Shown here in pieces: positions 16,861 through 43,818 of a stretch of 64,000 nucleotides of DNA (positions are counted from its first letter, which is position 1; each line of letters starts with the position of its first letter). The stretch is from contig CP060219.1 in NCBI GenBank assembly GCA_023898365.1, positions 133,743-197,742 on the forward strand. Direction: 5' to 3'. A program made the position numbers and the translations under genes. The DNA comes from Candidatus Woesearchaeota archaeon (GTDB lineage: Archaea > Nanobdellota > Nanobdellia > Woesearchaeales > GCA-023898365). A model generated the notes under the pieces. It ran no database searches, was not told where the DNA came from, and saw only the letters and a list, made by a program, of their open reading frames with translations.

Positions 16861-16867
16861 GTGTTCT

Positions 16868-17269
16868 ATGGCGCATCGCTGTATTAGTTGTGGAAAAATC
16901 TACAAAGATGGGTCAGATGAAATTCTCAAGGGATGTTCTTGTGGAAGCAAACTCTTTTTCTATGTGAAAAATGAAAAAGTAAGTACACCTGAAATCCGCG
17001 AAATCGTTAAGTTAAGCAAAAAAGATCGAGATCAAATTGAACGAGACATCTTTGAAATTATTGGTGTAAACAGAGAAGAAGAGCAACCAGTCGTCTTAGA
17101 TTTGGAATCAATCAAAATCAAACGACCTGGAAAGTACGAACTTGATCTGGTCAACTTATTCAAGAAAAAACACCCTCTTGTTTACAAGCTTGAAGATGGA
17201 AAATACATGATCGACATCATCGAGTCGTTTGAAAAAATGCGCACAAACGATGAAGAAGAGAAATCATGA
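16868..17269 (+). CDS. Zn-ribbon protein (DUF2072-like)
   Basis: 133 aa. N-terminal 'CISCGKIYKDGSDEILKGCSCGSKLF' is a four-Cys ribbon. Confidence 0.65.
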   Translation: MAHRCISCGKIYKDGSDEILKGCSCGSKLFFYVKNEKVSTPEIREIVKLSKKDRDQIERDIFEIIGVNREEEQPVVLDLESIKIKRPGKYELDLVNLFKKKHPLVYKLEDGKYMIDIIESFEKMRTNDEEEKS

Positions 17270-18293: not shown

Positions 18294-20267
18294 ATGAAAC
18301 AAGTTATTATGCTCATGACGTTGGTTGTTGTGCTTCTCTCATACGGAGTCATTGCAAGCCAAGGCGATCAGCACAGAACTGATCCAGACATCTCATTTAT
18401 TGCAGTGCTCGACGATGTGGCAAGCACACAAAGCACAACAGGAACACTTACTATTACCACTACGGGCGAAGCGACCTTTATTGTAACGCTTTCCGCGGGA
18501 ACACTTGAAGGAGCCTGCACCATTAGTGACATTTCTCTCTCACAAGAAGAATTTACCTTTGTGAATGCAAGCACAGAAGAAGTCAATATCAGCGTTTCCT
18601 TACCAGCATGTGCTGCCCGAGGAAACTACACGGGACACTTGTATGCTGACGTTGACATTACAACTAATGAAACTGGCTACATCTACACAGACAACATCTC
18701 AGTAACACTCGAAGTCCTTAATCGAGCACCAGTTATTCAAGCCATTGCAGACATAACTAACCAATCTGGAAGTGCGTTTAGCATGCAAGTTGAAGCATCA
18801 GACGTTGACGGAGATGACTTAACCTATTCACTGAGCGGCACCACCGCATTAAGTATTAATCAAGAGGGACTTCTTGTCGGCACAGTTCCAGAAGGAGCAA
18901 CCACCATCGAAGTGCAAGTAAGTGACGGCACTGTTAGCGTCAGCGACACCTTCGTGTTAACCGGCACGTACCAAGGTAAACGCTTACAAACAAGCACCGC
19001 AACTCTCTTTGTTGGGGGCCCAAGCCAAGACAGAGAAACGAACTTGAGTTTCAGTTTTACCTTAAGCAACACCGGCACAGAAACCATTACGAATTTGCTA
19101 TACGGAAACAATATTGACAGCGAATATGCATTTGCATTTACGAGTGGTCCTAGCTCTCTTGCCCCAGGAGCTCAAGCTCTAGTCACAGGATATATCTACA
19201 TTCCTGACTCTAAAGACTCTGAGCGAGAACAAATCGGCATCATTGCCATAGGAGACGAAACATCAATTCTTGTCACACTCCCAGTCGATATGCAAGCAGT
19301 TTCTGAAGCAGAAATTAAGAAGCTTAAAGTGGAAACCTCACTTGAAGAAGACACCAGCGTGCAAGATGATGAGAAAGTAAAAGCACGTATCGGAGACGAA
19401 GTGACAGTCACCATCACTGTTAAAAATAAATTTAATGAAAATATTGACTTCGAAGACATCACCATTACACTTATCAGCGAAGACTTAAATGATCTCGACG
19501 AAGAAGATAGTTTTGGCGACACCATCAGAGACGGCAAAGATGAAACATTCACCATGACCTTTGACATCGATGAAGATCAAAATGATGGCGAAAACAGAGT
19601 GACTGTTCTTGTTGAAGCTGAAGATGAAAATGGAGCCATCCACACTGTCGAGCAAGACTTCATTATTGATATTAATCAAGAAGATGAAGATTATCGTATT
19701 GATGGATTCACTTTGACGCCACTTACTGTGCAGTGCGGTGGAACGATGACGGTTCGCGCAGATATTGACAATATTGGTGCAGATGATGTTGATCGCGGCA
19801 TGGTTATTTTCAGTGTTGCAGATTTGAATATTGAGCGAGTCAACAACGATGTAAGCATTGATTTTGATGACTCAGACACCATCACGTTCAGTGTTCCAAT
19901 CCCTGCAAACGCTGCGCCAGGATCATATCTTGCAGAAGTTTCAGCATATATCGGCCTTGATCGAGATGATGATTTAACCGATTCTGAAGCAACACAATTT
20001 ATTGTGACGTGCAATGATGATCAGACGTCAACAAACAACAATAACAACCAACAGACGCAAGGAAACACCGGAAACTCAGGCATTGTCTTATTAGATCAAG
20101 ATAATGAAGCATTACAAGAGCTTGTCGGCGTTAGTGCAACAGGAACAGAAAGAAAGGACGCGTCAAGTGGCATTGACACAACAGAAGTGATTCTCTTCGC
20201 TCTTGTTGTTTTAATGATCATTGTGATCTTGCTTCTAGCTGTTAATCTTATGCGTCAAAAAAAGTAG
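18294..20267 (+). CDS. Surface protein with cadherin-like/He_PIG-like module, acidic repeats and C-terminal TM anchor
   Basis: 657 aa. Signal 'VIMLMTLVVVLLSYGVIA'. Module 'NRAPVIQAIADITNQSGSAFSMQVEASDVDGDDLTYSLSG'. C-terminal 'VILFALVVLMIIVILLLAVNLMRQKK'. Confidence 0.75.
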   Translation: MKQVIMLMTLVVVLLSYGVIASQGDQHRTDPDISFIAVLDDVASTQSTTGTLTITTTGEATFIVTLSAGTLEGACTISDISLSQEEFTFVNASTEEVNISVSLPACAARGNYTGHLYADVDITTNETGYIYTDNISVTLEVLNRAPVIQAIADITNQSGSAFSMQVEASDVDGDDLTYSLSGTTALSINQEGLLVGTVPEGATTIEVQVSDGTVSVSDTFVLTGTYQGKRLQTSTATLFVGGPSQDRETNLSFSFTLSNTGTETITNLLYGNNIDSEYAFAFTSGPSSLAPGAQALVTGYIYIPDSKDSEREQIGIIAIGDETSILVTLPVDMQAVSEAEIKKLKVETSLEEDTSVQDDEKVKARIGDEVTVTITVKNKFNENIDFEDITITLISEDLNDLDEEDSFGDTIRDGKDETFTMTFDIDEDQNDGENRVTVLVEAEDENGAIHTVEQDFIIDINQEDEDYRIDGFTLTPLTVQCGGTMTVRADIDNIGADDVDRGMVIFSVADLNIERVNNDVSIDFDDSDTITFSVPIPANAAPGSYLAEVSAYIGLDRDDDLTDSEATQFIVTCNDDQTSTNNNNNQQTQGNTGNSGIVLLDQDNEALQELVGVSATGTERKDASSGIDTTEVILFALVVLMIIVILLLAVNLMRQKK

Positions 20268-20284
20268 GGTTGATTGTAAGCAGA

Positions 20285-20316
20285 TTTTTTTTTAATTTTT
20301 TTCTTTCTCTTTCTTT
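20285..20316 (+). terminator. T-rich terminator tract
   Basis: T9 and T7 runs begin about 18 nt after the stop at 20267. Confidence 0.35.
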
Positions 20317-20376
20317 TTGTTCCAGCCCTTACAGAACAAAACACTTATATACACGATTCGTCCTTTTTTTCTCAGA

Positions 20377-21879
20377 ATGGTGTTGTCGCAGAAAATTCTG
20401 CTTGGCCTCATCGCTGTTGTGAGCGTTACGTGTGTGTATCTTCTTATCGAAATAGTTTTTACGCCAACACTTACTGCTCATGTAATTACTGCATATGGCG
20501 GAGAAATAACCCAGATGAATGTCCATCTTGACACCGTGTATCAAAATGATTGGTGGTTTGCAGTCTATGGCAACATTACGAACACCACAAACAGCACAAA
20601 TATGACTACAAATTCTGCATCAAATGTTGTTGGCGCGACATTATATGTTAATTGGACGGCGTTTTTTGATAATCTTACTGAAGACCGGTATACTAATCTT
20701 AACTTATTTGCTTCAACGCATGAGAATCCAGATCTTACAAATCTTTGGCCCGTTCACCCCGCATGGGCAGATGTGCTTGTGTATGGATTTAACTGGCAAG
20801 ATGGTCGCTCAAATATGGGAACGTTTACCACGTTTCATGATTTCACCATAAACAGTCAGCTTCGTTCCTTATATAGCACGCGCACCAACAGCGTTGAAGG
20901 AGAGTATTGGGTGGGCATTGCGCGCGATGCAACAAACAATAAACCAGTCTTTGTAACTGAGATTGTAAATGGATCGGGATTTGATGGATCTCATGCAGAC
21001 TTCCAATTGATTCTTCCGGTCAACAGTACAAACATTACCTACTACTTTTCTTTTGCAAAAAAAATAGATGCTCTCTTGAATTGCACTGAAGACTTTGAAC
21101 TTAACGCCTCATTACTCGATGATAATCAGACGGTTCAGCTTAATTGGACAAATGTTACAGGAGCTACAAGTTATACGCTTTCTGTGCTTACGGGAAATGT
21201 AACAACCGCTCCTGATTTCAGAAATGCAACGAACAACTCGCTTGCAAACCCTTGGTTTACGTACGTTGATACAGGAACAGAAACTACCTTCTTTCAAGTG
21301 ACCGCCCATAAAGGCATTCAGTCATGCACCTATAACAACACGCTGGCAGGAATCTACAATATCAACACCTACGAAGGTCTCAATCTGGTAAGTGTTCCCG
21401 TCATTCCTGTTGATCCTACAATCGAAGAAGTGTTTAAGACCATTGATGAGTTATATGTTACCATTAATGAATATGACAACTCCATTCAAGATTATCATTT
21501 TTATATTCGTGTTGGCGGTTTTGTTTTTCAAGACTTTTACACCATCAATAAGGACTTTGGCTATTGGATGCTAACAGAAAATGCTGATGGCGTAGCTACA
21601 GTTGTTGGAGCAGTCACGCAACAAAAGAATGAAGCGTTACTCCCAGGAGTTAGCCTTGTCGTGTTCCCAACTCCTCCTGACGAAAATCACACCGTAGAAA
21701 ATAGATTTTCATCAGTGTTTCCAAATCTTTCTACTATTAACGAATATGAGAACAGCATCCACGATTATCACTTTTACATTCTTGTTTCAGGATTTGTGTT
21801 TCAAGACTTTTACAACGCGATTCCAACGAGAGGTTATTGGACGGTACTTACTGGTGCAGACACCATGGTGATTTCATGA
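20377..21879 (+). CDS. Sequon-rich surface protein with an internally duplicated C-terminal module
   Basis: The maximal ORF starts with TTG at 20317; the ATG at 20377 gives the signal-anchor 'MVLSQKILLGLIAVVSVTCVYLLI'. It has many N-x-S/T sequons. It contains two copies of 'INEY[DE]NSI[QH]DYHFYI.V.GFVFQDFY'. Confidence 0.7.
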   Translation: MVLSQKILLGLIAVVSVTCVYLLIEIVFTPTLTAHVITAYGGEITQMNVHLDTVYQNDWWFAVYGNITNTTNSTNMTTNSASNVVGATLYVNWTAFFDNLTEDRYTNLNLFASTHENPDLTNLWPVHPAWADVLVYGFNWQDGRSNMGTFTTFHDFTINSQLRSLYSTRTNSVEGEYWVGIARDATNNKPVFVTEIVNGSGFDGSHADFQLILPVNSTNITYYFSFAKKIDALLNCTEDFELNASLLDDNQTVQLNWTNVTGATSYTLSVLTGNVTTAPDFRNATNNSLANPWFTYVDTGTETTFFQVTAHKGIQSCTYNNTLAGIYNINTYEGLNLVSVPVIPVDPTIEEVFKTIDELYVTINEYDNSIQDYHFYIRVGGFVFQDFYTINKDFGYWMLTENADGVATVVGAVTQQKNEALLPGVSLVVFPTPPDENHTVENRFSSVFPNLSTINEYENSIHDYHFYILVSGFVFQDFYNAIPTRGYWTVLTGADTMVIS

Positions 21880-22526
21880 AAACAATACTAGGCGCGATCT
21901 TATTTTTGCTATTTGTTGCAAGTAGCTTTGCATTTCTTCCCACACCGTTTAATATTGTTGGCACCTATTCTCCTGGCCAAACAGTCACCATCCAACTTGA
22001 AAGTGGGAATCAATTGTTCGAGAAAGAATTCGTTGTGAACGCTGAAGGGTATTATGCGGGCGTTATCTCACTTCCCAGCCAAGAAGATGTTTCAGTGCTT
22101 GTTCGCAATAGTGCAGGAGATATTATTTTTGAAAATGAGGATGTTAATCCATGGAATATGCACATATGGTATTTTGAAAACGGTAATGTTCGTGATGAAT
22201 CCATTCCTGTTGAAAAACCAATTGTTGACTCCTATTTTGTTGACGTAACAGCTCTTGCTCGAGAAACAGACCCCTCGAAACCTTCTCAGGAAACAAATGC
22301 ACTGCGTGATCAATACGCATTCGATATATCTGAACCTCCCGAGGAACTCCTGCAAGAACAGGATCCAACATTCATCATCAAGGGAAGTGCAGAGCACGTT
22401 TCAGGGTATAGTGACAAGACACCGTATTTGTTCATCGTTCTTCTTCTCTTTTTGCTTCTCTTAGTAAACACCTATATCAAGGACCGAGCAACTCCTTCTG
22501 AATTGTTTGAAGATAGATCTAACTAG
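21876..22526 (+). CDS. Hypothetical type I membrane protein
   Basis: The ATG at 21876 overlaps the upstream stop (ATGA). Signal 'MKTILGAILFLLFVASSFA'. C-terminal TM 'YLFIVLLLFLLLLV'. Confidence 0.6.
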   Translation: MKTILGAILFLLFVASSFAFLPTPFNIVGTYSPGQTVTIQLESGNQLFEKEFVVNAEGYYAGVISLPSQEDVSVLVRNSAGDIIFENEDVNPWNMHIWYFENGNVRDESIPVEKPIVDSYFVDVTALARETDPSKPSQETNALRDQYAFDISEPPEELLQEQDPTFIIKGSAEHVSGYSDKTPYLFIVLLLFLLLLVNTYIKDRATPSELFEDRSN

Positions 22527-32266: not shown

Positions 32267-33832
32267 TCAATGTTCATTCCTACAATTACTCGAACAACCA
32301 TCACCATCTCTCCAATTGCCATCATCACATTCTTCCGAGTCTTCTCGTATGCCATTACCGCACCATCGCGGCAAGGAAATTGATGAATGAACACAATATA
32401 GCCGATATTCATTTTCACAAGTTTTTTTCTCACCAGTATCAGTCCACTTAAAGTTAGTGCTTGTCGAATCACCTACTATTCCAAGCTGAGAAGATTTGGT
32501 CCAGACATCGCAATTATCTCCAAAGAGAAATCCGTGCCTGAGACCAGTCCACACAAAATCTGAAACTGTATGTCCGTATTCATCATACATGATTGGAAAG
32601 TAAAGATCATAAAGGCCTAAATCTTGAAAACTATCGGCAACAAGGGTTGCGTTTGCACTTTCATTTGCTGAACGGACATAATACTCAACTCCGCTGTCAG
32701 GAATAGCTATATGACTCAACACGCCAACACGAGGCATCGCGCCTAACCAGGCAATCCATGCCCCTTGACCGATTGTTATTCCGTCAGAATTTTTTGCTAA
32801 ATAATTACAAATAGCATCAGCAGCAAGTAGTTCGTTTGCTTCTTCAGGACTATTTATCATGTTCTTTGTGTAGGGATTAATCAAACCAACGGCATAATTT
32901 AAAAACTTCCCTCCTTCATAGATTTGGCTTGTTACAAAAACATTTGAATAATACTTACATTTCGCATTACAATAATCACCACCATTATCAATGCCGTCGT
33001 CGCATTGTTCGCCATATTCTTGCCCGCCTAAAGTCACATTTCCTATTTGAGCATCACCGCAGAAGAGAGGAGAATCAATTCGTACATTGCCACAGGTTGC
33101 GTTGCAGTAATAACAAGCACTGCCATATGGTGGAGGAACGCAGAGTTGACCGTTTCCTGCGCCATCGTCGCATACTTCTCCTGGTTCTGCAAATCCATTT
33201 CCGCAGGACGTGAAGCATTGTGAAATGTCAAGTTGACAATTCGCTGTGCATTGCATCGTCCCTCCTTCATAATATCCTTGCGAGAGGCAAGTTGCGCCTC
33301 CTAAACTTGCACCATCACATTGTTCGCCAGTCTCAATTATGCCATTGCCGCATTCAGCGCCAAGTGCTTGTTCAACTTCTCTTGCGGCAACTTCTGTAAC
33401 GATAGTACCAAGCGCGTCGTATTCTATTCCAGATCCTGAACTTAATAAATAGGTGAAGTTAAGTGTGAGAATTACTGTTGTTCCGGGAGCAAATTCTTTG
33501 TTGAGATCAAATCGTGTTTGACGAGATTCGGAAGGATTAAGAACCAGAGGTGTTGAAAACTCTTGTGTGGCTGATGAAAATTCGAGAATGCGTACACTTG
33601 TTATATTTACCGGACGCGCAACTTCATTTCGAAAGTTTATTGCAAACAAGCCGCTTTCGGTGAGAAGCGCATCTTCACAGGCAAAGGTTGACCCAAGATC
33701 ACAAACCCGTTGCGTAATAACAGTTGGTTCAAATATGGTTGAGGAAAGCAAGAAGCCAACTCCTCCAAGGACTATGAGAAGAGTGAGAGAATAAAAAACA
33801 ATGGTTTCAATTGCCGCAGCACGATGATTCAT
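32267..33832 (-). CDS. Secreted protein with Myxococcus-type cysteine-rich repeats and a C-type-lectin/DUF1554-like module
   Basis: 521 aa. Repeats 'CGNGIIETGEQCDG', 'CGNGFAEPGEVCDDG', 'GEQCDDGIDNGGDYCNAKC', 'CGNGIREDSEECDDGNWRDGDGCSSNC'. Central region 'VFVTSQIYEGG...ADAICN...VWTG...CDVWT...YRLYCV'. Confidence 0.75.
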   Translation of the reverse strand: MNHRAAAIETIVFYSLTLLIVLGGVGFLLSSTIFEPTVITQRVCDLGSTFACEDALLTESGLFAINFRNEVARPVNITSVRILEFSSATQEFSTPLVLNPSESRQTRFDLNKEFAPGTTVILTLNFTYLLSSGSGIEYDALGTIVTEVAAREVEQALGAECGNGIIETGEQCDGASLGGATCLSQGYYEGGTMQCTANCQLDISQCFTSCGNGFAEPGEVCDDGAGNGQLCVPPPYGSACYYCNATCGNVRIDSPLFCGDAQIGNVTLGGQEYGEQCDDGIDNGGDYCNAKCKYYSNVFVTSQIYEGGKFLNYAVGLINPYTKNMINSPEEANELLAADAICNYLAKNSDGITIGQGAWIAWLGAMPRVGVLSHIAIPDSGVEYYVRSANESANATLVADSFQDLGLYDLYFPIMYDEYGHTVSDFVWTGLRHGFLFGDNCDVWTKSSQLGIVGDSTSTNFKWTDTGEKKTCENEYRLYCVHSSISLPRWCGNGIREDSEECDDGNWRDGDGCSSNCRNEH

Positions 33833-34368
33833 TTTAGTTTTTTATCCATTTTTTGAGCAACTGCTGCTAGTTTTGCTACGTTTTCTGTAAAGAGCGGCAG
33901 AACTTGCGAGAATACTTTTTCCATAGCTTTCACTTCTGCGCCAACATTCAAAATGTGCTTGTCGTATTCTGCAACTTTTCCAAGAACAGATTCGTTAAGC
34001 ATTTTTACTTGTGCTTGCACGTCGTTGAGCTGTTGCGAAAGTTTGCTTAGCGTGATTTGTGTTTCGTTTTTCCAATCAATTATTTTGTTAATGTCAGCAA
34101 TGACTTCATTCCATTTTTCATCAATGACCGTTTCGACAAGTTCTTCGACCGCAAGATGTTGACGTTTTGGCGAAGATACATGATCTTGTGGCTGGACTTC
34201 TTGACCAAAGGTTGCATCATTTTGTGTATGGGCAGTTTTAATTTCTGCTCGACTTAATGCGTTGAAGATGTCTGATGATGAGTGACCTTCTTTTTGAAGA
34301 ATTTCAATAATTTGTTGCTTTGTCAGGCCTTGCCCTTGCATATCCTGAATTCTTGTAGTTTGAATCAC
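33829..34368 (-). CDS. Coiled-coil protein with small N-terminal helical domain
   Basis: 179 aa. 'GQGLTKQQIIEILQKEGHSSSDIFNALS' is followed by a long heptad region containing 'VIDEKWNEVIADINKIIDW'. Confidence 0.6.
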   Translation of the reverse strand: MIQTTRIQDMQGQGLTKQQIIEILQKEGHSSSDIFNALSRAEIKTAHTQNDATFGQEVQPQDHVSSPKRQHLAVEELVETVIDEKWNEVIADINKIIDWKNETQITLSKLSQQLNDVQAQVKMLNESVLGKVAEYDKHILNVGAEVKAMEKVFSQVLPLFTENVAKLAAVAQKMDKKLK

Positions 34369-34745
34369 TTTTTCACCTCTTCAAGCTCTTGTCTTGTTAC
34401 AAAGTTCTGTGGTTGCCAAAGATTAATATATGTTTCTATTTCTTTAAGTTCGGGCTGTCTTGCCAAAAACTTCATTTCTGAGCGTAATAGTGCAAGTTCT
34501 GCTTGCATTTCATGCAGTGTTGACTTTATGGCAAGAAGATCTTCTGAAAGGTCTCTTATTTCTCTCACTGCGTCTTTACTTACTTCTCTGAATCGATCGT
34601 CAGTTATTTGGTTTTTTTTGTGGAGCGTTCCATTTCGTTCTTCAAGAAGCTTGATGCGCGTATTAAGGTGAGTTATTTTTTCAGAATAATCTGTTCCCTC
34701 TTGTTTTTTCCCCTTTTCAGGAGGTGGAAAGAGTTCATTTGCCAT
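34365..34745 (-). CDS. Coiled-coil protein
   Basis: 126 aa with a 4-nt overlap with the downstream gene. Heptad-rich, ending 'YINLWQPQNFVTRQELEEVKK'. Confidence 0.6.
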   Translation of the reverse strand: MANELFPPPEKGKKQEGTDYSEKITHLNTRIKLLEERNGTLHKKNQITDDRFREVSKDAVREIRDLSEDLLAIKSTLHEMQAELALLRSEMKFLARQPELKEIETYINLWQPQNFVTRQELEEVKK

Positions 34746-34888: not shown

Positions 34889-35155
34889 ATGAAAGCACTT
34901 ATCATGCTCCCCATCGTTCTTGGCATCATTCTCACTACAGCAATGAGTTTGCAGGAATTTGCAGAATCTTCAAGTGAGAAAGCAATAGATTTTGCAGATG
35001 ATATGAACAACGCATTTAGCTGCGCGGCGCTAGGAAAATCAATCTTTGAGTGCTCACCAGATCTGAAAACCACAGATTTTACCAATGAAACCATCAAAGC
35101 AAAAGAACTCATTGCAGAACTCGAAGAGAATCTCGACGACGCAAACCAATTCTAA
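34889..35155 (+). CDS. Small secreted/anchored acidic protein
   Basis: 88 aa with N-terminal hydrophobic 'MKALIMLPIVLGIILTTAMS'. Confidence 0.4.
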   Translation: MKALIMLPIVLGIILTTAMSLQEFAESSSEKAIDFADDMNNAFSCAALGKSIFECSPDLKTTDFTNETIKAKELIAELEENLDDANQF

Positions 35156-35169
35156 AGTAGTAGTTACGT

Positions 35170-37032
35170 TTATTGCTTTTTAACCTTCTGTTTTAACCGA
35201 GCAATCATGTCTTCGCTTTGTTTAATCCGCTCATAGCGCTGTTGACGAAGAGCATCTTCCTGAGAAGCAAAAGTGGCCTGCGCTGCAACCACCTCTTTTT
35301 TTGCAAGGTCATCAATAGGAGGGGCAGCACCACCACCCGATCTCGAAGAAGAAATGTGAGATTTCAACGCCTTCGTTCGTTCATGCATCTGCTTAAGTGA
35401 TCGCACTTGTTTTCGTTTAGAGGAAGAAAAATAATTTGCAGGAAGCAAATAGACAAGGAGAAACAAAATAACTGATGCAAGACCAACCAATTCAAACCAA
35501 TGAATGGCAAGTAGGGCGATGCGAGACTCGATGATATTTACTAACAAAATTGTGGAACGCACAGAAGACATAGGAACTCCAAAAACACTCGGCAACGTAT
35601 TTAACACATCTTCAGAATCAGTAACATAAGAAGTGATCCACGATTCACCCTGATCGATACGATCAACCACCCAAACACCCTTCTTGGTGAACGGTTGAGA
35701 AATCTCTCTAAATTCAGCAGACTCCGGAATCAACTCTTTAACAACAAGATCTTCCAACGGACTTTCTCCCAAATTCAACAAATTAAGTGTGACGCGAATC
35801 TCATCTTGCGTAATGTACGCGACACTCTTTTGCACGAAGAGTTTTTTCTCAGGAATATATTGGCGAATGAACGGCAATGACGAGCTATACACCCTGTTTT
35901 TCCCATAAACAAATTCTCCAGCAGGGAAAAAATCAACACCTAACGAATCTTCATCAACATATTTGATCGCGTATTCGACCCGTTTTGACTTTCGAGGATT
36001 TAACGACATATCCCACGTAAGTGTTGAACCATCAGCATTCTTTGTTCCTTCGCCCGTATCAATAATTTCAAAACCCGAAGGAATCTCATCAGTGAGTTTT
36101 CCTGAAACAAGAAGCGGATCAAAATTATTCAAAATAAGTTTGACGTCAATAACGTCTCCTGGTAAGACTTGTGTTGAAGAAACAGTTTTTCTTAAAAACA
36201 CATTATTCAAAAGGAAGCTATTAAAGAACACATCTCGTCCAGTCCCATTTACTGAGGCATTCAAACTGTAATTAATCAAATCATCTTCAGTAAAGAGAGA
36301 AATATTGTTTGTTCTATTATACACGAACTGAGAGGCATCAAGAAACACGTCCGCTTGAAGCCAATAAATCTCCCCTTCGACCACTTCTTCATCGAAAAAA
36401 TCCTTCGCGTAAAATTCGCCAGGGCCAATTTGAGTAACCTCTCCTGTAAAATCCCACGATTCGAGTTCACGCGTAATATCCAAATCAGATGTTTTCGTCA
36501 CTTTAAATAAATCAAGTGTTAAATTAAAACTTGTTGGATTCTCAAAATGAACACTGATTAATCTTCTATCACGGCCAGTGATTGCTTCAACTTCTGGTTC
36601 GTTTTTGAGAAGTTGACCGAACACATCAGTGTAGACTTCGGGTTCTTCTTGGAAGATGCCACCTGCAAGAATAGGTTCCCCATCAACAATAGGATTAATC
36701 GACGTAATACCCAAAATATTGTAACTGAGTGAAATTGAGCTTTGCGGTTCAATACTAAAAATTATCAATCCTTGCGACGTCATCAATTGACCTGAAGAAG
36801 TTGCATTAGAGCGAAGTTCAAGACCAAACAAATTATACGGTATGTTAAGATTGTTAAGCGTGACTTCTTCTTGGTTATATATAGTGATTACTCCATCAAC
36901 ATTGACAACATAAAAATCATCGTAGAAACTTGTAATCTTGCCCGATTCGACAATATCAAAGACTATAGTACCTGCCGTTGCAAAAGGAAGGAGAAAAATG
37001 GCAAGAGTGAAAAAAAGAACAAACCATTTCAT
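35170..37032 (-). CDS. Type I membrane surface protein with two DUF11/CARDB-like modules and a cytoplasmic coiled-coil tail
   Basis: 620 aa. Signal 'FVLFFTLAIFLLPFATA'. Modules 'LPGDVIDVKLILNNFDPLLVSGKLTDEIPSGFEII' and 'IRVTLNLLNLGESPLEDLVVKELIPESAEF'. TM 'VGLASVILFLLVYLL'. Confidence 0.7.
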   Translation of the reverse strand: MKWFVLFFTLAIFLLPFATAGTIVFDIVESGKITSFYDDFYVVNVDGVITIYNQEEVTLNNLNIPYNLFGLELRSNATSSGQLMTSQGLIIFSIEPQSSISLSYNILGITSINPIVDGEPILAGGIFQEEPEVYTDVFGQLLKNEPEVEAITGRDRRLISVHFENPTSFNLTLDLFKVTKTSDLDITRELESWDFTGEVTQIGPGEFYAKDFFDEEVVEGEIYWLQADVFLDASQFVYNRTNNISLFTEDDLINYSLNASVNGTGRDVFFNSFLLNNVFLRKTVSSTQVLPGDVIDVKLILNNFDPLLVSGKLTDEIPSGFEIIDTGEGTKNADGSTLTWDMSLNPRKSKRVEYAIKYVDEDSLGVDFFPAGEFVYGKNRVYSSSLPFIRQYIPEKKLFVQKSVAYITQDEIRVTLNLLNLGESPLEDLVVKELIPESAEFREISQPFTKKGVWVVDRIDQGESWITSYVTDSEDVLNTLPSVFGVPMSSVRSTILLVNIIESRIALLAIHWFELVGLASVILFLLVYLLPANYFSSSKRKQVRSLKQMHERTKALKSHISSSRSGGGAAPPIDDLAKKEVVAAQATFASQEDALRQQRYERIKQSEDMIARLKQKVKKQ

Positions 37033-37739
37033 TCTGCACCCTTCTTTCGAAACGTAAAAACTGTTTTACCTAAGACGAGCACGATAACAATCAACCAAAA
37101 GATGTTTACCGCCCTAATCTTATCGTTTCTAAAGAAGGGAATAATCGAGTATTCAAAACTCAAACGCTCAGTTGGACCCCATTCGAGCAAAGTTGATGAG
37201 CCTTCTGAAGAAACAAGGGCATCAGGGGCGAACGTTACATGATATTTCTTTGGCAAGACAAACGAGGTCGTCTCAACTTTCCGTGGAATGGTAGTGTGCT
37301 CAGCAGGAATATCAATGCCATAGAATAAGATGCCTCGAGGCTTAAAATCTAACCAGTACGTCATAGTCACATCATAATAAAATTGTGGCAAAAGAGGATC
37401 CCAAATGGTAAACACAAGATCGGTAAAATCTGTTCCGGGAACAATCTTAGTATCTAGTCGTTGATCAAATTTGTTTTTTACGACAAATTCTGAGGCGCCA
37501 ATTGATTCTTCACGATCACCACCACTTACTAACTTTGAAAGTTTGAAATGAATCTCACCAGGAATAATAGGATTGTCGCCAACATTCTTGAGGCGAATTT
37601 CTTTTTGTACAAGAATTTTTCCATCTTCTAAAGAGTAAGTGGTTTGATAATTATCAAAAACAACAACTTCAGCAGAAACTTGAGATAGAGTGATAAGTAG
37701 GGAGAATAACAAAACCAGTAACGTAATTGATGTTCTCAC
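37029..37739 (-). CDS. Type I membrane protein, beta-rich ectodomain
   Basis: 236 aa with a GTG start. Signal 'ITLLVLLFSLLITLSQVSA' and C-terminal TM 'IFWLIVIVLVLG'. ATGA overlap with the 620-aa gene. Confidence 0.65.
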   Translation of the reverse strand: MRTSITLLVLLFSLLITLSQVSAEVVVFDNYQTTYSLEDGKILVQKEIRLKNVGDNPIIPGEIHFKLSKLVSGGDREESIGASEFVVKNKFDQRLDTKIVPGTDFTDLVFTIWDPLLPQFYYDVTMTYWLDFKPRGILFYGIDIPAEHTTIPRKVETTSFVLPKKYHVTFAPDALVSSEGSSTLLEWGPTERLSFEYSIIPFFRNDKIRAVNIFWLIVIVLVLGKTVFTFRKKGAE

Positions 37740-37794
37740 GGAACTTTACACCCCCAAAGTTGAAAAAATGAAAATAAAAAAAAATTGGAAGAAC

Positions 37795-39639
37795 CTATTT
37801 GTACTTCCTTAGCTTATGATTGATCTGCCTAGTCATCAACACGTTTGCTACATTGATCGCGATCAAAAACACCACGAGGCCAACATAGAACAATTCTCTT
37901 GTTCGCGTGCCAAGGACCGATCTCATCAAAATAGCTTCCGAACCACCAGCTCCATCAACTTTACGAGGGTCCAATCCTACAATGTAAAGTTCAGACGCAC
38001 GATAGTCACCGGATCCGTTTACCCAGTAACTCACATTCCAAGTCCTGTTATTGTATGACTCACTGATTGGACCAAGAGATGAGTTGTAAGGATTCTTCAA
38101 TGGAATATTCCATTGATGAGTCGTACCGTTAAACTCGGTGTTGGTAACGTTGGCGGACGCGTCTGGCGTTCTACTATACGTATAGTTGAATGGCGTGAAT
38201 TCTGAAGGCACGAAGTCGTAGACCGTGACCACTAAGTGTTGTGGCGTCCAGTCATTTCCAATGTTTTCAACTAAGATGTCAATGCGATATTGATCTTCGT
38301 ATGTTGAAACAACATCCTTATGCACTTCAAGCCAGTAGCCATTTACCACGTAGATGTACTTCATATAATAATCGTTGCCATTTCTCGTATATGTCGAGTT
38401 TAAAATTTGATTATAGGCGTTGATTATGTTGAAGTAAGGCAACATCCACACAACAGGTGGTGGAGAAGTTACCGGATCACTTCCGTCGGTAAAGTTAAAT
38501 TCCCATGCAGTGCTTAAGTAACCTGTTGACAAGTTGATTTCTTGATTTGGATACACCGTTGAGTTGAGTAATCCAAAGTCAGTCGTTCGGTTCGTCATAT
38601 TAAGCGTTGTTGTAACCCACATAGATAATTTTGTCAAGCGGTAAGCAATGTTAATTGGCGTGGTAACATTAGACCGCGCTTCCCACGTCACATTTGTATT
38701 GTTCTCATTATCTGCAGGCTGCACAATTCTTTTTGTTAAGTGATCATGTGCTTGCGCAGAAGCAATAACTGAATCTAAAGAGAGGTTAGATGCTAAATAG
38801 GAAATATTGTATCTAAGCGTCTCAGTGATTGCCTTGTACGTATCTGACGTTGGAACATTGTTTGGCGCAGTCACATTGTACTGAATCCAGACAGTTTCGC
38901 CAGGAACTAAGGTTCCTGCACTCGCTTGCCAATACCAACTCGTGTTACTTGTTCCATTCCCGTGGAGATTAGCAAAATCTCCAAGCTCGTAGAGTTCGTC
39001 AAGAGAGAACAAACTGTTTGTTCCATTCCATAAAATACCATTAACTTGGATAGAAATATTAATATCATTTACATTCTGGCCGACAGCTAAAACGTTGCTT
39101 GCTGATTGATTAACTTGCCAAGTGTGACCAGCAAGAACCTTCCTGTTAAATCCATGTTCGACATTTCCATAAGAAGTGTTAATATCTAATGGTGGTTGAA
39201 CTGAACCACAAGACATATTATAGTTAAACGTTGAAAAATTTCCTGCTCGAAGTTGAGGAATATGAACTTGAAAGACATCTCCTGGAGCAGAACCAAGAGT
39301 TTGCGAACCGTATCTTCCTGCAATGAGTGTGAAATTCGTACTCATTGTGTCCGTGTTCGAGAAGTTAATATAGATATCATCTACCGTGTCCGGACTTGGA
39401 TTAGTCACGTTGAGAATTCCAATGATCTCACATGTTGTCGTTGATTCCGTTAAATAAAAATTTTCTGCGTAGGTAACATTCTGATTGACTGTTTCAACCA
39501 ATGAAATGTTAATCCTTGTCGGAAGCGCTGAAGCCACCGACATAAATAGCAATCCTAACACTAAGAGAAAAATAGCTCGTCTCACCTTGGTCACCTTTGT
39601 ATATCTTTGAAAACGAATAGTTTCATGCGAGCAACACAC
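37795..39639 (-). CDS. Heavily sequon-decorated type I membrane surface protein
   Basis: 614 aa with about 30 N-x-S/T sequons counted by eye. Signal 'AIFLLVLGLLFMSVASA' and C-terminal TM 'LFYVGLVVFLIAINVANVLM'. An alternative GTG start at 39585 has GGTGA upstream. Confidence 0.7.
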   Translation of the reverse strand: MCCSHETIRFQRYTKVTKVRRAIFLLVLGLLFMSVASALPTRINISLVETVNQNVTYAENFYLTESTTTCEIIGILNVTNPSPDTVDDIYINFSNTDTMSTNFTLIAGRYGSQTLGSAPGDVFQVHIPQLRAGNFSTFNYNMSCGSVQPPLDINTSYGNVEHGFNRKVLAGHTWQVNQSASNVLAVGQNVNDINISIQVNGILWNGTNSLFSLDELYELGDFANLHGNGTSNTSWYWQASAGTLVPGETVWIQYNVTAPNNVPTSDTYKAITETLRYNISYLASNLSLDSVIASAQAHDHLTKRIVQPADNENNTNVTWEARSNVTTPINIAYRLTKLSMWVTTTLNMTNRTTDFGLLNSTVYPNQEINLSTGYLSTAWEFNFTDGSDPVTSPPPVVWMLPYFNIINAYNQILNSTYTRNGNDYYMKYIYVVNGYWLEVHKDVVSTYEDQYRIDILVENIGNDWTPQHLVVTVYDFVPSEFTPFNYTYSRTPDASANVTNTEFNGTTHQWNIPLKNPYNSSLGPISESYNNRTWNVSYWVNGSGDYRASELYIVGLDPRKVDGAGGSEAILMRSVLGTRTRELFYVGLVVFLIAINVANVLMTRQINHKLRKYK

Positions 39640-39870
39640 CCTTGAAACCCACAGAGCTAAAAACCGAAGTTTTCATATATAAATGTTTCGAAAAAATGTC
39701 TGTTAGAATAGAAAAATCTGACATTTTTTGTTAGCACGTTTGAAGAGTAACGAAAAACTATGTAAAAAAATATTCAACAAAAACTTCTGCTTGAGAACAG
39801 TCACTAACATCACGTTCTATGACTGCATCTATAGCAAGACTTATAAAGTGGATTTATCCAAAATAGGTTC

Positions 39871-40800
39871 ATGGTTCATAGGAAACCAGCTGGTCCAAAA
39901 GGACTTGGGCTAGTTGTTATACTTTTCACGCTCTTCTTCTTAGTGGCAGTAATCCCTTTCACAACAAGCATTAGCGTTAATCCACAAGAAACAATAATTG
40001 AGCGGATTGACCAAGAAAATATCATTCGCATCAGCATCATCAATAATGATGTTGAAGTCCAAAACATTCAACTGCAAACGAGTCAAGAATCAAAGTATCT
40101 TGACAGACATTTTTCTATCAACCCAACATTATTCGGTCTTTCACCTGGCGAAACAAAAGTTATTGAAGTGCAACCAACAGACTTACTTTCTGTAACACCC
40201 GAAAAACATCATTTTTCCTTATTAGTAATCAGTGTTGACGAAGAAAATCAAGAGCAAACAATTAGTGGCGCAATCACCATTTATTTTACCAAAGAAGGAG
40301 ATCAACAACCTTCTCTTCATTTTGACAAACTTACCGTGGTGAGTTCTTCACCAGAAGAAATTGTTTACAGTGTAGATCTTCTTAACAATGGCAACATAAA
40401 TGATTGGATTAAGCCACGCGTTTCTTTATTTGACGAATCAAGAAATGAGGTGTTCTCTACAACGTATAAAAAACCATTTCTTCTTGAACCAAGCCAATCA
40501 ACGACTTTGACTCTCCCTCAGCAATTTAGTAGATTAGAAAGAGGAACCTATACACTTCGTGTTCAGATGATTTACAACGAAAATCTCTCCTCGCCGCTTC
40601 GAGAAGCGCAAATTACTATTAACCAAGAACGTGCAAGGACAACAGAAGGAAACGATTACTCAATCCCTCTGGTCATCTCTCTAGGTGTGCTCGGACTCTT
40701 AGGATTCATCTTGTATCGATACCGAGAATACATAAAAATCAAAGAAGAGCTTGAAAAAAAGCACAGCAACAAAGAAGGAACAAACACGAAGAAAAAATGA
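39871..40800 (+). CDS. Membrane-anchored protein with two Ig-like-looking beta modules; possible class III-like N-terminus
   Basis: 309 aa. N-terminus 'MVHRKPAGPKGLGLVVILFTLFFLVAVIPF'. C-terminal TM 'IPLVISLGVLGLLGFILY' with a Lys-rich tail. Confidence 0.65.
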   Translation: MVHRKPAGPKGLGLVVILFTLFFLVAVIPFTTSISVNPQETIIERIDQENIIRISIINNDVEVQNIQLQTSQESKYLDRHFSINPTLFGLSPGETKVIEVQPTDLLSVTPEKHHFSLLVISVDEENQEQTISGAITIYFTKEGDQQPSLHFDKLTVVSSSPEEIVYSVDLLNNGNINDWIKPRVSLFDESRNEVFSTTYKKPFLLEPSQSTTLTLPQQFSRLERGTYTLRVQMIYNENLSSPLREAQITINQERARTTEGNDYSIPLVISLGVLGLLGFILYRYREYIKIKEELEKKHSNKEGTNTKKK

Positions 40801-42188
40801 AACGCGTAATTATTTTCATTTCTGTTGCGATAGTGATTTCGCTTATCTTCCTCTTTCCAAAACAAAGTGATGGATGCGATTGCGCAGGATCATTACTCTC
40901 AAAAGAAACCTTATGTCTTGGCATTCCTCTTTGTCAGGAAACGATTGTGGCGGCTCCAGAAAAAGAACCAACAGCTATTGATCAAACAACCAGTATTCCA
41001 AACAGTAGCAATACGACTTCCGTACTGCAGAACTCCACTATCAGTAATACCACAAATCAAAATCAGTCGCAAGCTGTTGAGCTAGTCACTGAGAACCCTG
41101 TTTCCACTTCATCCAACACAAGTTCAAATGAATCACTGGTGTGTTCCGCTGATTGCGCAACAATTCGTGAACTGCTCAAAGCAACAGAGCTTGGCACGTA
41201 CGAACAATTTTCAAATTACACGTATAGTAACAATGAGCGAGAAGCAATTGTGCTTGCCATCGACACGTCTGAAAGCATGCAGCGTAGAATCGGACATGCA
41301 AAAGAAGCAGCAAAACAACTTATCGATCTCATCGGCTATGAAGATAGCGTTCTCATTCTCTCATTTGATCAAGAAACAAAAATTTCGTATGGGTTTACGA
41401 ACGACAAAACAGTGCTCAAGAGCCAAATCGATGCATTGACGGTAGGTCTTGGCACTGACGGGTATGAGTTATTTAGAAAAACAAATCTTGTCTTAAACAC
41501 ATTTGACGCGCCAGTAAAAAAACTCATCGTTATTACTGATGGTATTTTTTGGGATGATGGCACAAACCAAACTGCAATTGAAGCTGCACAAGCCACGTAC
41601 TGCATAAATATTATTACTCAAGGTGTTGATATCCTCAAGGATAAAAACAAAGAAAAGCGGATCAAGAATCTAGTAAATGCATGTGGCAGTTATTATTACA
41701 GCCCAGAAACCCCTGAAGAATTGTTTACTCTTATGAATTTGATTTATCACGAAATTGAAGAAGGGTCAAACGAGTTATCCCTTCGCATCAAACTATCACA
41801 TGACCTGGTTGCAAAAAATGAAAATGTAACCATTTCTAGTCTTGCATTCTCCTCATACACAGGCATGGTCTTGCCGTTTTCAAACGACGCATACTGTATT
41901 GAAGCGCCCATTATTACTCTAAATACAAAGGAGTTGTCGACGAAAGGGAGCTGGCAAGAACTATCAACCAACGATCTTATTCCAGGAGAAAACATTCTTG
42001 TTTTACATGCCAAGATCCCCGGATGCAATATTGTAGGTTCAAAAGAATTTGAAGTTATCGTACAGCGAAACAAAGATTATGATTTCCTCACCGTTCTATT
42101 CATTCTCCTTCTGGTTGGGAGCAGCAGTTATTTCTTTATCAAACCAAAACATGTTCGCGCAGTTAAGTTGTTCTTCGGGTTTAAATAA
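40797..42188 (+). CDS. von Willebrand factor A domain membrane protein
   Basis: 463 aa. MIDAS 'AIDTSESM', '...GLGTDG...' and 'IVITDG'. TM helices at both the N- and C-terminus. 4-nt overlap with the upstream gene. Confidence 0.8.
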   Translation: MKRVIIFISVAIVISLIFLFPKQSDGCDCAGSLLSKETLCLGIPLCQETIVAAPEKEPTAIDQTTSIPNSSNTTSVLQNSTISNTTNQNQSQAVELVTENPVSTSSNTSSNESLVCSADCATIRELLKATELGTYEQFSNYTYSNNEREAIVLAIDTSESMQRRIGHAKEAAKQLIDLIGYEDSVLILSFDQETKISYGFTNDKTVLKSQIDALTVGLGTDGYELFRKTNLVLNTFDAPVKKLIVITDGIFWDDGTNQTAIEAAQATYCINIITQGVDILKDKNKEKRIKNLVNACGSYYYSPETPEELFTLMNLIYHEIEEGSNELSLRIKLSHDLVAKNENVTISSLAFSSYTGMVLPFSNDAYCIEAPIITLNTKELSTKGSWQELSTNDLIPGENILVLHAKIPGCNIVGSKEFEVIVQRNKDYDFLTVLFILLLVGSSSYFFIKPKHVRAVKLFFGFK

Positions 42189-42379
42189 AAGCAATAAACA
42201 GTCTTTCATAAGAGGAAGCGAACTCTCGCAGTGCTCGTTTTTTCACAAAGAATCATTCTCTTACCAAACAAAAAGCTAATTGCGCAAAAGATAGGAAAAT
42301 CATCAAAAGAAAAACACATGAAGAGATAAACACGTGAAGAACTTAAAAAAAACACTATTAAAAAAATATACGATCGCTC

Positions 42380-43690
42380 TTAACTCATTTTTACTGGCCA
42401 GACATACTCCAATTCCTGATTGATCGCTTCAGGAGCAGTAACAACCACTTCTTCAGTTGTGCCTGTTCTTGGAATAAGTCGAATATCAAATGATTCGCCG
42501 CCTTCAATCGAAGAAGGTAAACGGAAATGTATTTTGATGACGTCATCTTCATGAACTGAACCAAGTGAATAATCAGGTCCACGTTTTGCATAGGTTACTG
42601 CGAACGTTCCTTGACCCACAGAAGGAGGTGAAACTGTAAACGTGTCGCCCGCATCAATAGTACGCTTAGCAGTCGTCAGACCATACGTTTCTAAATAACC
42701 TGCAGGATCACCAGCAAGCGTAGTAAAAGACGTCCTTGACTTGTCAAAGGTTGCACCAATCGAAGAAATATCTCCTCCTAAAGGAACGGCGACACCTTCT
42801 GTTGAGTTATATTGCACAGAAACATTTCCATCCGATGAGAAGAAAAAGATAGCGTGCGACTCATTCAAACCCATCCACTCATACTCTTGATCGTTATCAT
42901 GATCATTAGCTAAATAGTAAGGATTCCTAAATAGATGCACTTGATTTGCGTTAATGCCGTTCGAGTTGTTGTTTTTTCCAAAAATAGAAATTAGCCCATA
43001 TCCGGATATGTTTGTTAAAAAGTTTCCAAACTGACCCCCGCCAGAACCGATAAGTCGAACGCCACCAGATGCATTAACAGGCCTCACGTACTGAATTCCT
43101 GCACTGGAGACATTGATCATGAGCCATCTTGTTCTCGAAGCTTGACCAAAGCAAGGATTCGTGGCAAGATTTCCAACATCACTTCGACAAGATCTCGCAG
43201 TTTCATTGATGCCATCGCCGTCAATATCCACATTCAGATTGACAAAGGCAAAAAATCCAATTTGCACTTTATTTGTCCCATAAAAAGGAGCATGAAGTTC
43301 ATCAAATTCTTGATCAGAATAAATAGTATACCCCGTAAATGAGTACGCAGCCTCAGCATCAACACCAGCATATTGATAGGAAGATGACGCATCGCTTGCA
43401 CCCGCCAGAATAGTGAGTTGACTTAGTGACATAATATCAGAACCAGGAGTTAAGTGAGCTACAACTTGGACATCTTCCAAATAACTGTCCGTACCATCAG
43501 TAGCAGTAATTTCGGTAACCAGTAAGTGCGAAGCAACATTTGAGTTCACAGAATTTCCCGCTTGGATGGTAGTTTCTTGAAACGACCCACTCGTTCGAAT
43601 TATAACTAATGAAACAAATCCAGCAATAATTATCATAGACAAGACGACAAGCACTAATCCGAGACCAGCAACAGCTCGCTTTCCAACCAT
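42380..43690 (-). CDS. Archaellin-domain (class III signal) protein, about twice normal archaellin length
   Basis: 'MVGKRAVAGLGLVLVVLSMIIIAGFVSLVIIRTSGSFQETTIQAGNSVNSNVASHLLV' aligns by eye to the archaellin N-terminus (..[45 protein letters not shown]). The maximal ORF starts at 43753. The ATG at 43690 is preferred: it gives a short basic pre-sequence and has GGGGTG 8-10 nt upstream. Confidence 0.75.
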   Translation of the reverse strand: MVGKRAVAGLGLVLVVLSMIIIAGFVSLVIIRTSGSFQETTIQAGNSVNSNVASHLLVTEITATDGTDSYLEDVQVVAHLTPGSDIMSLSQLTILAGASDASSSYQYAGVDAEAAYSFTGYTIYSDQEFDELHAPFYGTNKVQIGFFAFVNLNVDIDGDGINETARSCRSDVGNLATNPCFGQASRTRWLMINVSSAGIQYVRPVNASGGVRLIGSGGGQFGNFLTNISGYGLISIFGKNNNSNGINANQVHLFRNPYYLANDHDNDQEYEWMGLNESHAIFFFSSDGNVSVQYNSTEGVAVPLGGDISSIGATFDKSRTSFTTLAGDPAGYLETYGLTTAKRTIDAGDTFTVSPPSVGQGTFAVTYAKRGPDYSLGSVHEDDVIKIHFRLPSSIEGGESFDIRLIPRTGTTEEVVVTAPEAINQELEYVWPVKMS

Positions 43691-43818
43691 TGGACTACAC
43701 CCCACGATAATTCGTAAGTTGCACAATTTATAAAACTTCTCATTTAAGGACATGCTGGCAAGTTGAAGAAATAGTAAAAAACAAAACTATATAAAACAAA
43801 GTTTTTGTGCTTTAACCA

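Follow-up and report, generated by a model that had tools for sequence, protein, structure and literature searches.

A conserved neighbourhood of cell-surface genes around an enlarged archaellin gene in a Candidatus Woesearchaeota genome

The Woesearchaeota remain without cultured members, and the surface of their cells is largely uncharted. Here we analyze a stretch of 64,000 nucleotides from a Candidatus Woesearchaeota archaeon (contig CP060219.1; this whole stretch is termed the window below), in which a block of seven genes encodes secreted or membrane-anchored proteins: a glycoprotein of the AF2028_C family (referred to as AF), a 236-aa protein, a 620-aa protein with DUF11/CLIPPER domains, an 88-aa small membrane protein (s88), a 309-aa Ig-like protein, a 463-aa vWA protein and a 436-aa archaellin. 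Of the described systems to which the block can be compared, the archaellum is represented by its filament subunits ArlB/FlaB (PF01917; structures 5O4U, 7OFQ, 5Z1L, 9EQ7 and 8RH5), which have in common with the window archaellin a class III cleavage site of the type K/R-G/A, an N-terminal hydrophobic helix, a beta-sandwich core and a conserved C-terminal strand. The window archaellin differs from them in being approximately twice the usual length, owing to an insertion, and in that its gene lies apart from motor genes. The Aap, Ups, Epd/'system 1' and bindosome systems (bioRxiv 10.64898/2026.04.22.720090) likewise combine a protein bearing a class III signal with surface accessory proteins, but the block is without their defining ATPase, platform protein and peptidase, and its subunit is of the archaellin type and not of the DUF361 pilin type. 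The catalogue of Sivabalasarma & Albers 2026 (bioRxiv 10.64898/2026.04.22.720090) mentions neither vWA nor DUF11 nor Woesearchaeota.

The remaining proteins of the block can be set against three further groups. The 620-aa protein differs from the fibrillar adhesins built of CLIPPER/DUF11 domains and from other archaeal DUF11 surface proteins (PMC12617251, according to which many archaeal DUF11 domains are without the Lys-Asn-Asp/Glu isopeptide triad): it has two repeats and no long tandem stalk, its anchor is a transmembrane (TM) helix with a cytoplasmic coiled-coil tail and not sortase, archaeosortase or OmpA, and AF and the 236-aa protein invariably accompany it. The vWA proteins of the BatA/BatB type and the pilus tip adhesins RrgA, GBS104 and PilY1-like share with the 463-aa protein the vWA fold, a complete DxSxS...T...D metal ion-dependent adhesion site (MIDAS) and an extracellular location. 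However, in contrast to the tip adhesins the window protein has a TM helix at both ends, and compared with Bat operons its gene is without a MoxR or DUF58 partner and its orthologues have two vWA domains. Lastly, the mu-homology domain (AP-complex mu, delta-COP and muniscins; PF00928) is that of a cytosolic cargo adaptor, whereas the AF domain that resembles it is extracellular and, judging from its sequons, glycosylated. The preliminary description of the window, which was made from the sequence alone, could not place the locus among known systems, and this holds insofar as no pilus, Aap/Ups, hami or cannulae locus described so far includes the block; it does not hold for the filament subunit, which belongs to the ordinary archaellum system. 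The module formed by AF, the 236-aa protein, the DUF11 protein and s88 has no description in the literature searched, and Pfam and the PDB give no explanation for it.

Based on family assignments, topology, synteny and differential conservation, we interpret the block as a conserved neighbourhood of three separable parts, a candidate envelope module, an archaellin and a vWA protein, and not as one machine, an interpretation to which we assign a probability of about 0.6.

Layout and conservation of the block

The features of the block, with their coordinates in the window, are as follows:

34889..35155, plus strand: s88, 88-aa small membrane protein, convergent to the DUF11 gene, fourth member of the module
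35170..37032, minus strand: DUF11/CLIPPER protein, 620-aa type I membrane protein
37029..37739, minus strand: 236-aa protein, type I membrane protein, partner of AF
37795..39585, minus strand: AF2028_C glycoprotein (AF), 596 aa from the GTG at 39585; the longest open reading frame (ORF), to 39639, gives 614 aa
39586..39870, no strand: divergent intergenic region between the AF and 309-aa genes, with TATA-like boxes facing each way
39871..40800, plus strand: 309-aa Ig-like protein, whose gene is the first of an operon of two, the second being the vWA gene
40797..42188, plus strand: 463-aa vWA protein (Pfam VWA_2/VWA), with a TM helix at each end
42380..43690, minus strand: 436-aa archaellin (ArlB/FlaB); the longest ORF, 42380-43753, gives 457 aa

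All six ORFs on which the preliminary description was built were found in place, in a strand pattern of three minus, two plus and one minus, and a seventh conserved gene, s88, had been overlooked by it. NCBI locus tags of the source metagenome-assembled genome (contig of 1,131,583 bp) are H6502_01055 and H6502_01070, and the identical sequence is present in Logan assemblies of SRR12358676. The 436-aa form of the archaellin (start 43690) is the annotated one and agrees with the alignment of its orthologues. The assignment of all six products as extracytoplasmic or membrane-anchored was supported by hydropathy: the 620-, 236-, 614- and 309-aa proteins each have a signal or anchor at the N-terminus, one C-terminal TM helix and a basic tail, the 463-aa protein has TM helices at its N- and C-ends, as had been described, and the 436-aa protein has one N-terminal hydrophobic helix. 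The N-termini had been called Sec-type or class III-like, and of this the signal/anchor topology stands, but a class III-type N-terminus belongs to the archaellin alone, the remaining ones being Sec-type signals or signal anchors; a class III signal was on this ground dismissed for the 620-, 236-, 614- and 463-aa proteins. Both of the ATGA overlaps reported earlier were seen, one between the 236-aa and 620-aa genes (37029) and the other between the 309-aa and vWA genes (40797). In the region between the divergent AF and 309-aa genes, TATA-like boxes were located by eye on the minus strand at 39676-39683 (TTTATATA) and at 39839-39847 (CTTATAAAG), the latter ~25 nt ahead of the ATG at 39871. The divergent arrangement of AF with a 309-like gene is also found in eight other loci (L002, L004, L006, L007, L008, L023, L042 and L048), and, because it is conserved in other genomes, the arrangement of the block is more than chance.

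The separation of the block into parts is based on its conservation in relatives, for which 49 loci were collected by a pattern scan with one genome per GTDB species. When profile searches for the archaellin and DUF11 families were iterated, they wandered into AF owing to domains that are really shared, and the counts were taken instead from single-pass searches, clean hidden Markov models and all-against-all clustering of ORFs. With the AF gene as the anchor of all 49 loci, the 236-aa gene lies directly after it in 38, the DUF11 gene after the 236-aa gene in 35, and s88, convergent, after the DUF11 gene in 28. An archaellin gene lies beside the module at eight distinct loci, and a vWA gene, between the archaellin and 309-aa genes, at four. 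The trio of AF, 236-aa and DUF11 genes plus s88 is a feature of ~35-40 of the 49 loci, mostly with no archaellin or vWA gene within 10 kb, and clustering of the ORFs in the loci revealed no further neighbour conserved beyond single clades. The identities of the window proteins to those of the closest syntenic genomes are 51-55% for AF, 49-51% for the 236-aa protein, 40-45% for s88 and 35-37% for the DUF11 protein, followed by 29-30% for the archaellin, 22-24% for the 309-aa protein and 20-23% for the vWA protein. Taken together, the breadth of conservation and the evolutionary rate distinguish a constrained module (AF, 236-aa, DUF11 and s88) from fast-evolving, patchy companions (309-aa, vWA and archaellin).

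The preliminary description had favored a different explanation, a dedicated structure of filament plus adhesin. Spelled out, all six or seven genes would build one appendage, with an archaellin filament, a base of the AF, 236-aa and DUF11 proteins and the vWA protein as an adhesin for attachment of an episymbiotic DPANN cell to its host. The synteny in related genomes that the preliminary description had asked to be checked was found: the complete seven-gene order (archaellin, vWA, 309, AF, 236, DUF11, s88) recurs, mirrored, in L002, L006 and L007, is kept minus the vWA gene in L008, L023 and L042, and is followed in L004 as far as the contig, which ends inside the vWA gene, reaches. In addition, L046 has the archaellin gene immediately upstream of AF, and the CLIPPER and vWA domains are ones typical of adhesins (PMC12617251). 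However, in ~38 loci neither an archaellin nor a vWA gene lies within 10 kb of the AF module, the vWA gene occurs in only five genomes, the window included, and encodes a protein tethered at both ends, the rates of the module and of the archaellin, vWA and 309-aa proteins differ approximately two-fold, and the ATPase, platform protein and peptidase were not found in the block. Moreover, a remote relative of AF (E 1e-30, among 1.84e9 representatives) was identified in L055, where AF, a 236-aa homologue and a CLIPPER protein lie amid unrelated housekeeping genes; the lysine-2,3-aminomutase and acetyltransferase pair in this locus may point to a methanogen-like euryarchaeon. The claim of one dedicated filament-plus-adhesin structure is as such not supported, and we regard a single appendage as improbable.

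The archaellin and the archaellum machinery

The 436-aa protein belongs to the archaellins proper (ArlB/FlaB). Its N-terminus is the archaellin-type class III signal that had been read from it, MVGKRA↓VAGLGLVLVVLSMIIIAGFVSLVII (the arrow marks cleavage; mature start VAGLG...), followed by a hydrophobic helix. Its beta-core is interrupted by an insertion of ~200 aa (approximately residues 140-345), which carries DxDxDG-like acidic motifs, and the archaellin C-terminus is conserved. The window protein alone scored 26.5 bits against PF01917, below the cut-off of 29.5, and 45.7 bits against the NCBIfam flagellin family NF006325, below its cut-off of 210; a precomputed match to PF01917.22 is recorded. 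A word-index search with it returned the protein itself only, which reflects the sensitivity of that search and not true orphan status: full-length orthologues (phmmer E 1e-24 to 1e-55) were later found in the loci fetched through the AF neighbour, namely beside the AF module in L002, L006, L007, L008, L023, L042, L046 and L048. Those of L046 (294 aa) and L048 (308 aa) are of normal size and match PF01917 at 96 and 85 bits, respectively, and the ~200-aa insertion is borne by the window archaellin and the six other orthologues.

An alignment and profile of the full-length orthologues (A2) has a canonical N-terminus, K-G/A↓..GIGTLIxFIAxLLVAAxAAGVLIQTSGSLQEK, with cleavage at KA↓Q.., KA↓E.. and KG↓E.., and a conserved C-terminus, and together with the hydropathy scan it confirms the class III signal of the window protein. 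Searched against the PDB, the A2 profile matched the solved archaellins of Pyrococcus furiosus, Oxiplasma, Methanocaldococcus villosus, Halobacterium salinarum and Methanococcus maripaludis at E 7e-27 to 5e-23, so that the archaellin profile match on which the preliminary reading of this protein depended exists at the level of the family, and against a database of 5.8e9 sequences it matched flagellins of Methanocaldococcus, Thermococcus and Pyrococcus at E 1e-17 to 1e-18. Consistent with this assignment, the AlphaFold2 model of the window protein has the archaellin fold, with a helix at 10-47 and beta cores at 54-110 and 350-431 (predicted local distance difference test, pLDDT, 75-91), and in a Foldseek search with it ranks 1-15 were all archaellum subunits (TM-scores 0.34-0.72, target-normalised), Iho670 and FlaF being placed far lower. 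Woesearchaeal archaellins were already known and are among the most expressed genes of these organisms in situ (PMC11606122); the window archaellin is an enlarged form of this known family, detached from motor genes.

With respect to the motor, the window ORFs of at least 100 aa that were scanned with Pfam yielded no T2SSE (PF00437), T2SSF (PF00482), KaiC-like ArlH or peptidase A24, in agreement with the earlier statement that no FlaH/I/J, PilB/C or prepilin peptidase was to be seen in the 64 kb, and motor genes were also absent from the 10 kb past the right end of the window and from 0.8 kb added on the left. The usual company of an archaellin (ArlH/I/J, ArlF/G, ArlK/PibD), missing from the 64-kb window and the 10 kb to its right, was found in L048 (Woesearchaeota Zod_Metabat.712), where a complete archaellum operon lies back-to-back with the AF module. 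The order on the opposite strand in this locus is a 309-like gene, three small or unassigned ORFs, a gene for a 153-aa ArlF/G-like protein (a full-length match to PF01917), ArlH (KaiC-type), ArlI (T2SSE), ArlJ (T2SSF) and two archaellins orthologous to the window protein. In no locus besides L048 were archaellum motor genes found within 10 kb. The adjacency of archaellin and module was probably inherited from an archaellum operon back-to-back with the module, an arrangement that L048 still has, and is probably an ancestral juxtaposition that has since decayed. Genes of another kind of type IV filament (TFF) lie near AF in a single clade: in L009, L012 and L014 (~4.3-6.3 kb) a T2SSE ATPase of ~634 aa is encoded ~3.6 kb upstream of AF, and in the P0040 locus a T2SSE gene and two T2SSF platform genes occupy the same position, the two T2SSF genes being seen in this locus, which is the sole one of the four with gene calls. 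In all four, genes of sugar metabolism lie between the type IV filament cluster and AF.

These observations bear on a second alternative, that the archaellin is an orphan whose motor has been lost and which, instead of building a rotating archaellum, forms a static adhesive fibre by means of the ATPase of another type IV filament, or stays as a membrane-bound subunit. The ~75 kb searched without finding motor genes accord with it, as do the N-terminus of the window protein, GLGLVLVVLS, which departs the most from the canonical GIGTLIxFIA, its PF01917 score just below threshold, the TFF 'system 1'-like ATPase clusters near AF in L009, L012, L014 and the P0040 locus, and the attachment role suggested for DPANN archaellins (PMC11606122). 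It is also in its favor that, in every locus seen, the insertion-type archaellins lie apart from arlHIJ. One of them, P0124 (Woesearchaeota, L053:11589-21296), is solitary; its neighbours encode an integrase of the phage type and a surface protein of 6,581 aa (Golvesin_C, DUF2341). Archaellin P0127 likewise stands alone with no adjacent motor. Conversely, detachment from arlHIJ operons, which is seen in relatives, by itself says nothing on loss, and the full-length ORF is intact with its cleavage site and C-terminus conserved. We therefore regard an orphan filament as unlikely and retain the interpretation of three separable parts, under which processing of the archaellin would fall to a class III signal peptidase and its polymerisation to ArlH/I/J from another part of the genome, and its inserted domain of ~200 aa would decorate the surface of the archaellum filament. 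The solitary P0124 is also a point against the single appendage, as the AF copies of the same genome are on other contigs.

Several observations weigh against treating the archaellin and the module as separate, or limit what can be said of them. First, on a rough neighbour-joining tree of AF, the loci with an adjacent archaellin are spread over three or more places. Second, profile comparison shows the archaellin insertion to be homologous (domain E 1e-6 to 1e-9) to an additional N-proximal domain that is found only in long AF proteins of 700-835 aa, including L047:169-2676 and L024:3782-5947; the insertion of the window archaellin alone scored below significance against this domain. Third, it is a 309-like gene that leads the archaellum operon of L048. 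The adjacency on several branches, the homology of the insertion with the long AF proteins and the 309-like gene in the L048 operon together hint at a functional link between module and archaellin, and the shared domain and the L048 operon that abuts 309 and AF speak for the single appendage considered above as well. From its sequence, the shared insertion domain suggests domain exchange between neighbouring surface genes. In addition, the archaellin model has an overall pLDDT of 62 with the insertion poorly modelled, no fold or sequence match in Pfam or the PDB assigns a function to the module proteins, and, should the genome be without ArlH/I/J and a class III peptidase, the archaellin part would need another explanation.

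The module proteins and their companions

AF is the most conserved gene of the block. The GTG start at 39585 adopted by NCBI yields a canonical Sec signal, MRRAIFLLVLGLLFMSVASA↓LPT, which is followed by an all-beta ectodomain, a C-terminal TM helix and a basic tail. The ~30 N-x-S/T sequons earlier counted by eye in the 614-aa protein were found to number 32, as compared with 11.7±3.1 expected from composition-preserving shuffles, and many are kept in the family consensus. A precomputed match to PF27408 (AF2028_C), a recent Pfam family that is absent from the Pfam copy used for the window scan, exists for the window protein and for 116 of 120 listed homologues. The homologues, 121 at 37-60% identity, are labelled Woesearchaeota, Nanoarchaeota, Nanobdellota or Nanoarchaeia where the source is named; a PDB sequence search with AF found no relative. 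The N-terminal domain of AF is homologous to that of the DUF11 protein (hhalign probability 91%, E 1e-6).

On the predicted model, AF has the fold of a mu-homology domain (PF00928). Membership was not supported by sequence profiles, as only one of 35 members of the family matched PF00928, at E 0.15, and the domain is extracellular because it lies between the Sec signal and the C-terminal TM helix and carries glycosylation sequons, a context other than that of a cytosolic adaptor. Therefore, we treat the likeness, seen in a predicted model, as no more than a structural resemblance, which may be a convergence of nested beta-sandwiches. Literature searches on AF2028, COG1361 and the mu homology domain in combination with archaea returned nothing relevant.

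The properties of AF raise a third alternative, namely that it is the main S-layer-like protein of these Woesearchaeales, with the 236-aa, DUF11 and s88 proteins as its anchors, as SlaB is for SlaA. Its signal peptide, all-beta multi-domain ectodomain, TM anchor and 32 largely conserved sequons would suit such a role, nearly all of the related genomes found have its gene, often in duplicate, and a part in archaeal S-layers has been proposed for DUF11 proteins (PMC12617251). However, no match to known S-layer families or folds was obtained, and a separate window protein, encoded at 1368-3563 (minus strand; 731 aa, with a signal peptide), passes the Pfam S_layer_C cut-off (48 bits versus 23.9) and is the more conventional S-layer candidate. 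We consider it doubtful that AF is the principal S-layer protein.

Where AF is present as a second paralogue (L013, L018, L019, L020, L039, L044 and L045), the 236-aa and DUF11 genes are replaced by an opposite-strand pair of large 309-like Ig-domain proteins of ~440 and 720-860 aa next to it, which is an alternative architecture of the module.

The 236-aa protein consists of a Sec signal, an ectodomain of ~180 aa, a C-terminal TM helix and a basic tail, and its gene is translationally coupled to the 620-aa gene via ATGA. Its family comprises ~40 orthologues that are 31-48% identical, with no Pfam match in any of 40 members and no PDB relative. The protein is a constant partner of AF and accompanies it in L055 too, remote as this locus is (E 8e-29). 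The 620-aa protein has a Sec signal, the AF-like N-domain, two DUF11/CLIPPER beta-sandwich domains, one TM helix (~504-537) and a cytoplasmic coiled-coil tail of ~80 aa, which some orthologues (524-559 aa) are without. The two DUF11 segments noted in the preliminary description correspond to two stretches matching Pfam DUF11 (PF01345) at 31 bits (cut-off 24.6), and TIGR01451 scored 21.4 bits, slightly under its cut-off of 24. Orthologues lie directly after the 236-aa gene in 35-38 loci. The fourth member, s88, is held by a short anchor at its N-terminus (MKALIMLPIVLGIILTTAMSL), and its extracellular part is helical and contains two conserved cysteines (..DCA..G.P..ECSP.L); orthologues in the same convergent position were found in 27-29 loci by single-pass phmmer (E 1e-6 to 6e-22) and clustering. 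A class III signal was considered for s88 and dismissed because the residue at alignment position -1 is often E or N.

Among the companions of the AF module, the 309-aa protein is one that evolves fast. An anchor at its N-terminus is followed by two Ig-like/E-set beta-sandwich domains and, at the other end, by a TM helix with a basic tail. Its Pfam matches are weak and generic Ig-like ones only (PapD_N, MSP, ASH and WxLIP_HBD), and it does not qualify as a PapD-like chaperone (PapD_N E 0.21, 12 bits versus a cut-off of 23); other members of the family match the generic HYDIN/VesB-like Ig, FixG_C and NPCBM_assoc families. Single-pass phmmer placed homologues upstream of AF in 13 distinct loci, and profiles did so in more. 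The vWA protein is composed of, in order, an N-terminal TM helix, an S/T/N-rich linker, the vWA domain, a beta-rich C-domain and a C-terminal TM helix, and it matches Pfam VWA_2 (PF13519; 40.1 bits, cut-off 27) and VWA (PF00092; 36.3 bits, cut-off 23.8). As had been noted earlier, the MIDAS is complete in the translation (DTSES, GLGTDG and ITDG). Its orthologues, which are 20-23% identical to it and have two vWA domains in 622+ to 771 aa, are confined to a narrow clade (L002, L004, L006 and L007), the L004 copy being truncated by the contig end, and no PDB sequence relative was found at E<0.01. Since it is anchored in the membrane at both ends, the window protein cannot ride on a filament and is not a filament tip protein.

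Based on these features, a working model of the block can be drawn up. The AF, 236-aa and DUF11 genes appear to be co-transcribed on the minus strand and are accompanied by the convergent gene of s88, taken to be a disulfide protein, and the divergent 309-aa gene, and the products, all predicted to be anchored by a single TM helix with their bulk outside, would form a heavily N-glycosylated hetero-oligomeric complex of the envelope, for example one that acts as scaffold or spacer within the surface layer or beneath it, in which the coiled-coil tail of the CLIPPER protein would be the sole cytoplasmic contact. The vWA protein, apparently co-transcribed with the 309-aa gene, would most likely be a metal-dependent binder of ligands at the cell surface. 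A much more far-reaching version of this model is that AF, the 236-aa protein, the CLIPPER protein and s88, with variable 309-type companions, constitute an undescribed ancient envelope complex that in Woesearchaeales is functionally coupled to the archaellum (e.g., as an extracellular collar or anchor that the filament traverses) and exchanges a surface domain with the archaellin, AF being a true prokaryotic relative of the eukaryotic mu-homology domain; we regard this version as improbable.

Neighbouring genes and significance

Other genes of the window encode proteins with related features. Immediately downstream of the block, at 32267-34745 (minus strand), is a three-gene operon with overlapping stops and starts for two coiled-coil proteins of the cytoplasm, 126 and 179 aa long, and for a third protein, of 521 aa, with a pilin-like N-terminus (MNHRAAAIETIVFYSLTLLIV...), 26 cysteines and DUF4215/myxo_disulf repeats; homologues of this operon were found in none of the related loci. 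At 18294-22526 (plus strand) is a trio of make-up similar to that of the block, consisting of a 657-aa protein (signal, DUF7507/CLIPPER_2, MG2 and a C-terminal TM helix), a 520-aa protein with 21 sequons and a 229-aa protein (signal and C-terminal TM helix). Paralogy of this cluster with the AF block was dismissed, as hmmsearch and hhalign were negative versus AF, the 236-aa protein and the DUF11 protein. The trio is followed by a pair of 183 and 1114 aa (Big_9, 27 sequons), and a like-sized Big_9 pair (191 and 1156 aa) is found near the module of L002. Further away, this archaeal genome encodes, at 61186-63906 (minus strand), a 906-aa protein that contains a peptidoglycan transglycosylase domain of family GT51 (Transgly, 43 bits), and the adjacent OapB and OapC genes at 16468-17269 (plus strand) suggest that a replication origin is close by.

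For the biology of these archaea, the module is a compact set of four to five genes in most related genomes and as such offers concrete targets for proteomics and cryo-electron tomography. The recurrent stand-alone archaellin genes bear on whether the filaments of DPANN archaea serve in swimming or in attachment. If the mu-homology-like fold of AF should reflect true homology, it would be relevant to the origins of eukaryotic adaptor domains.

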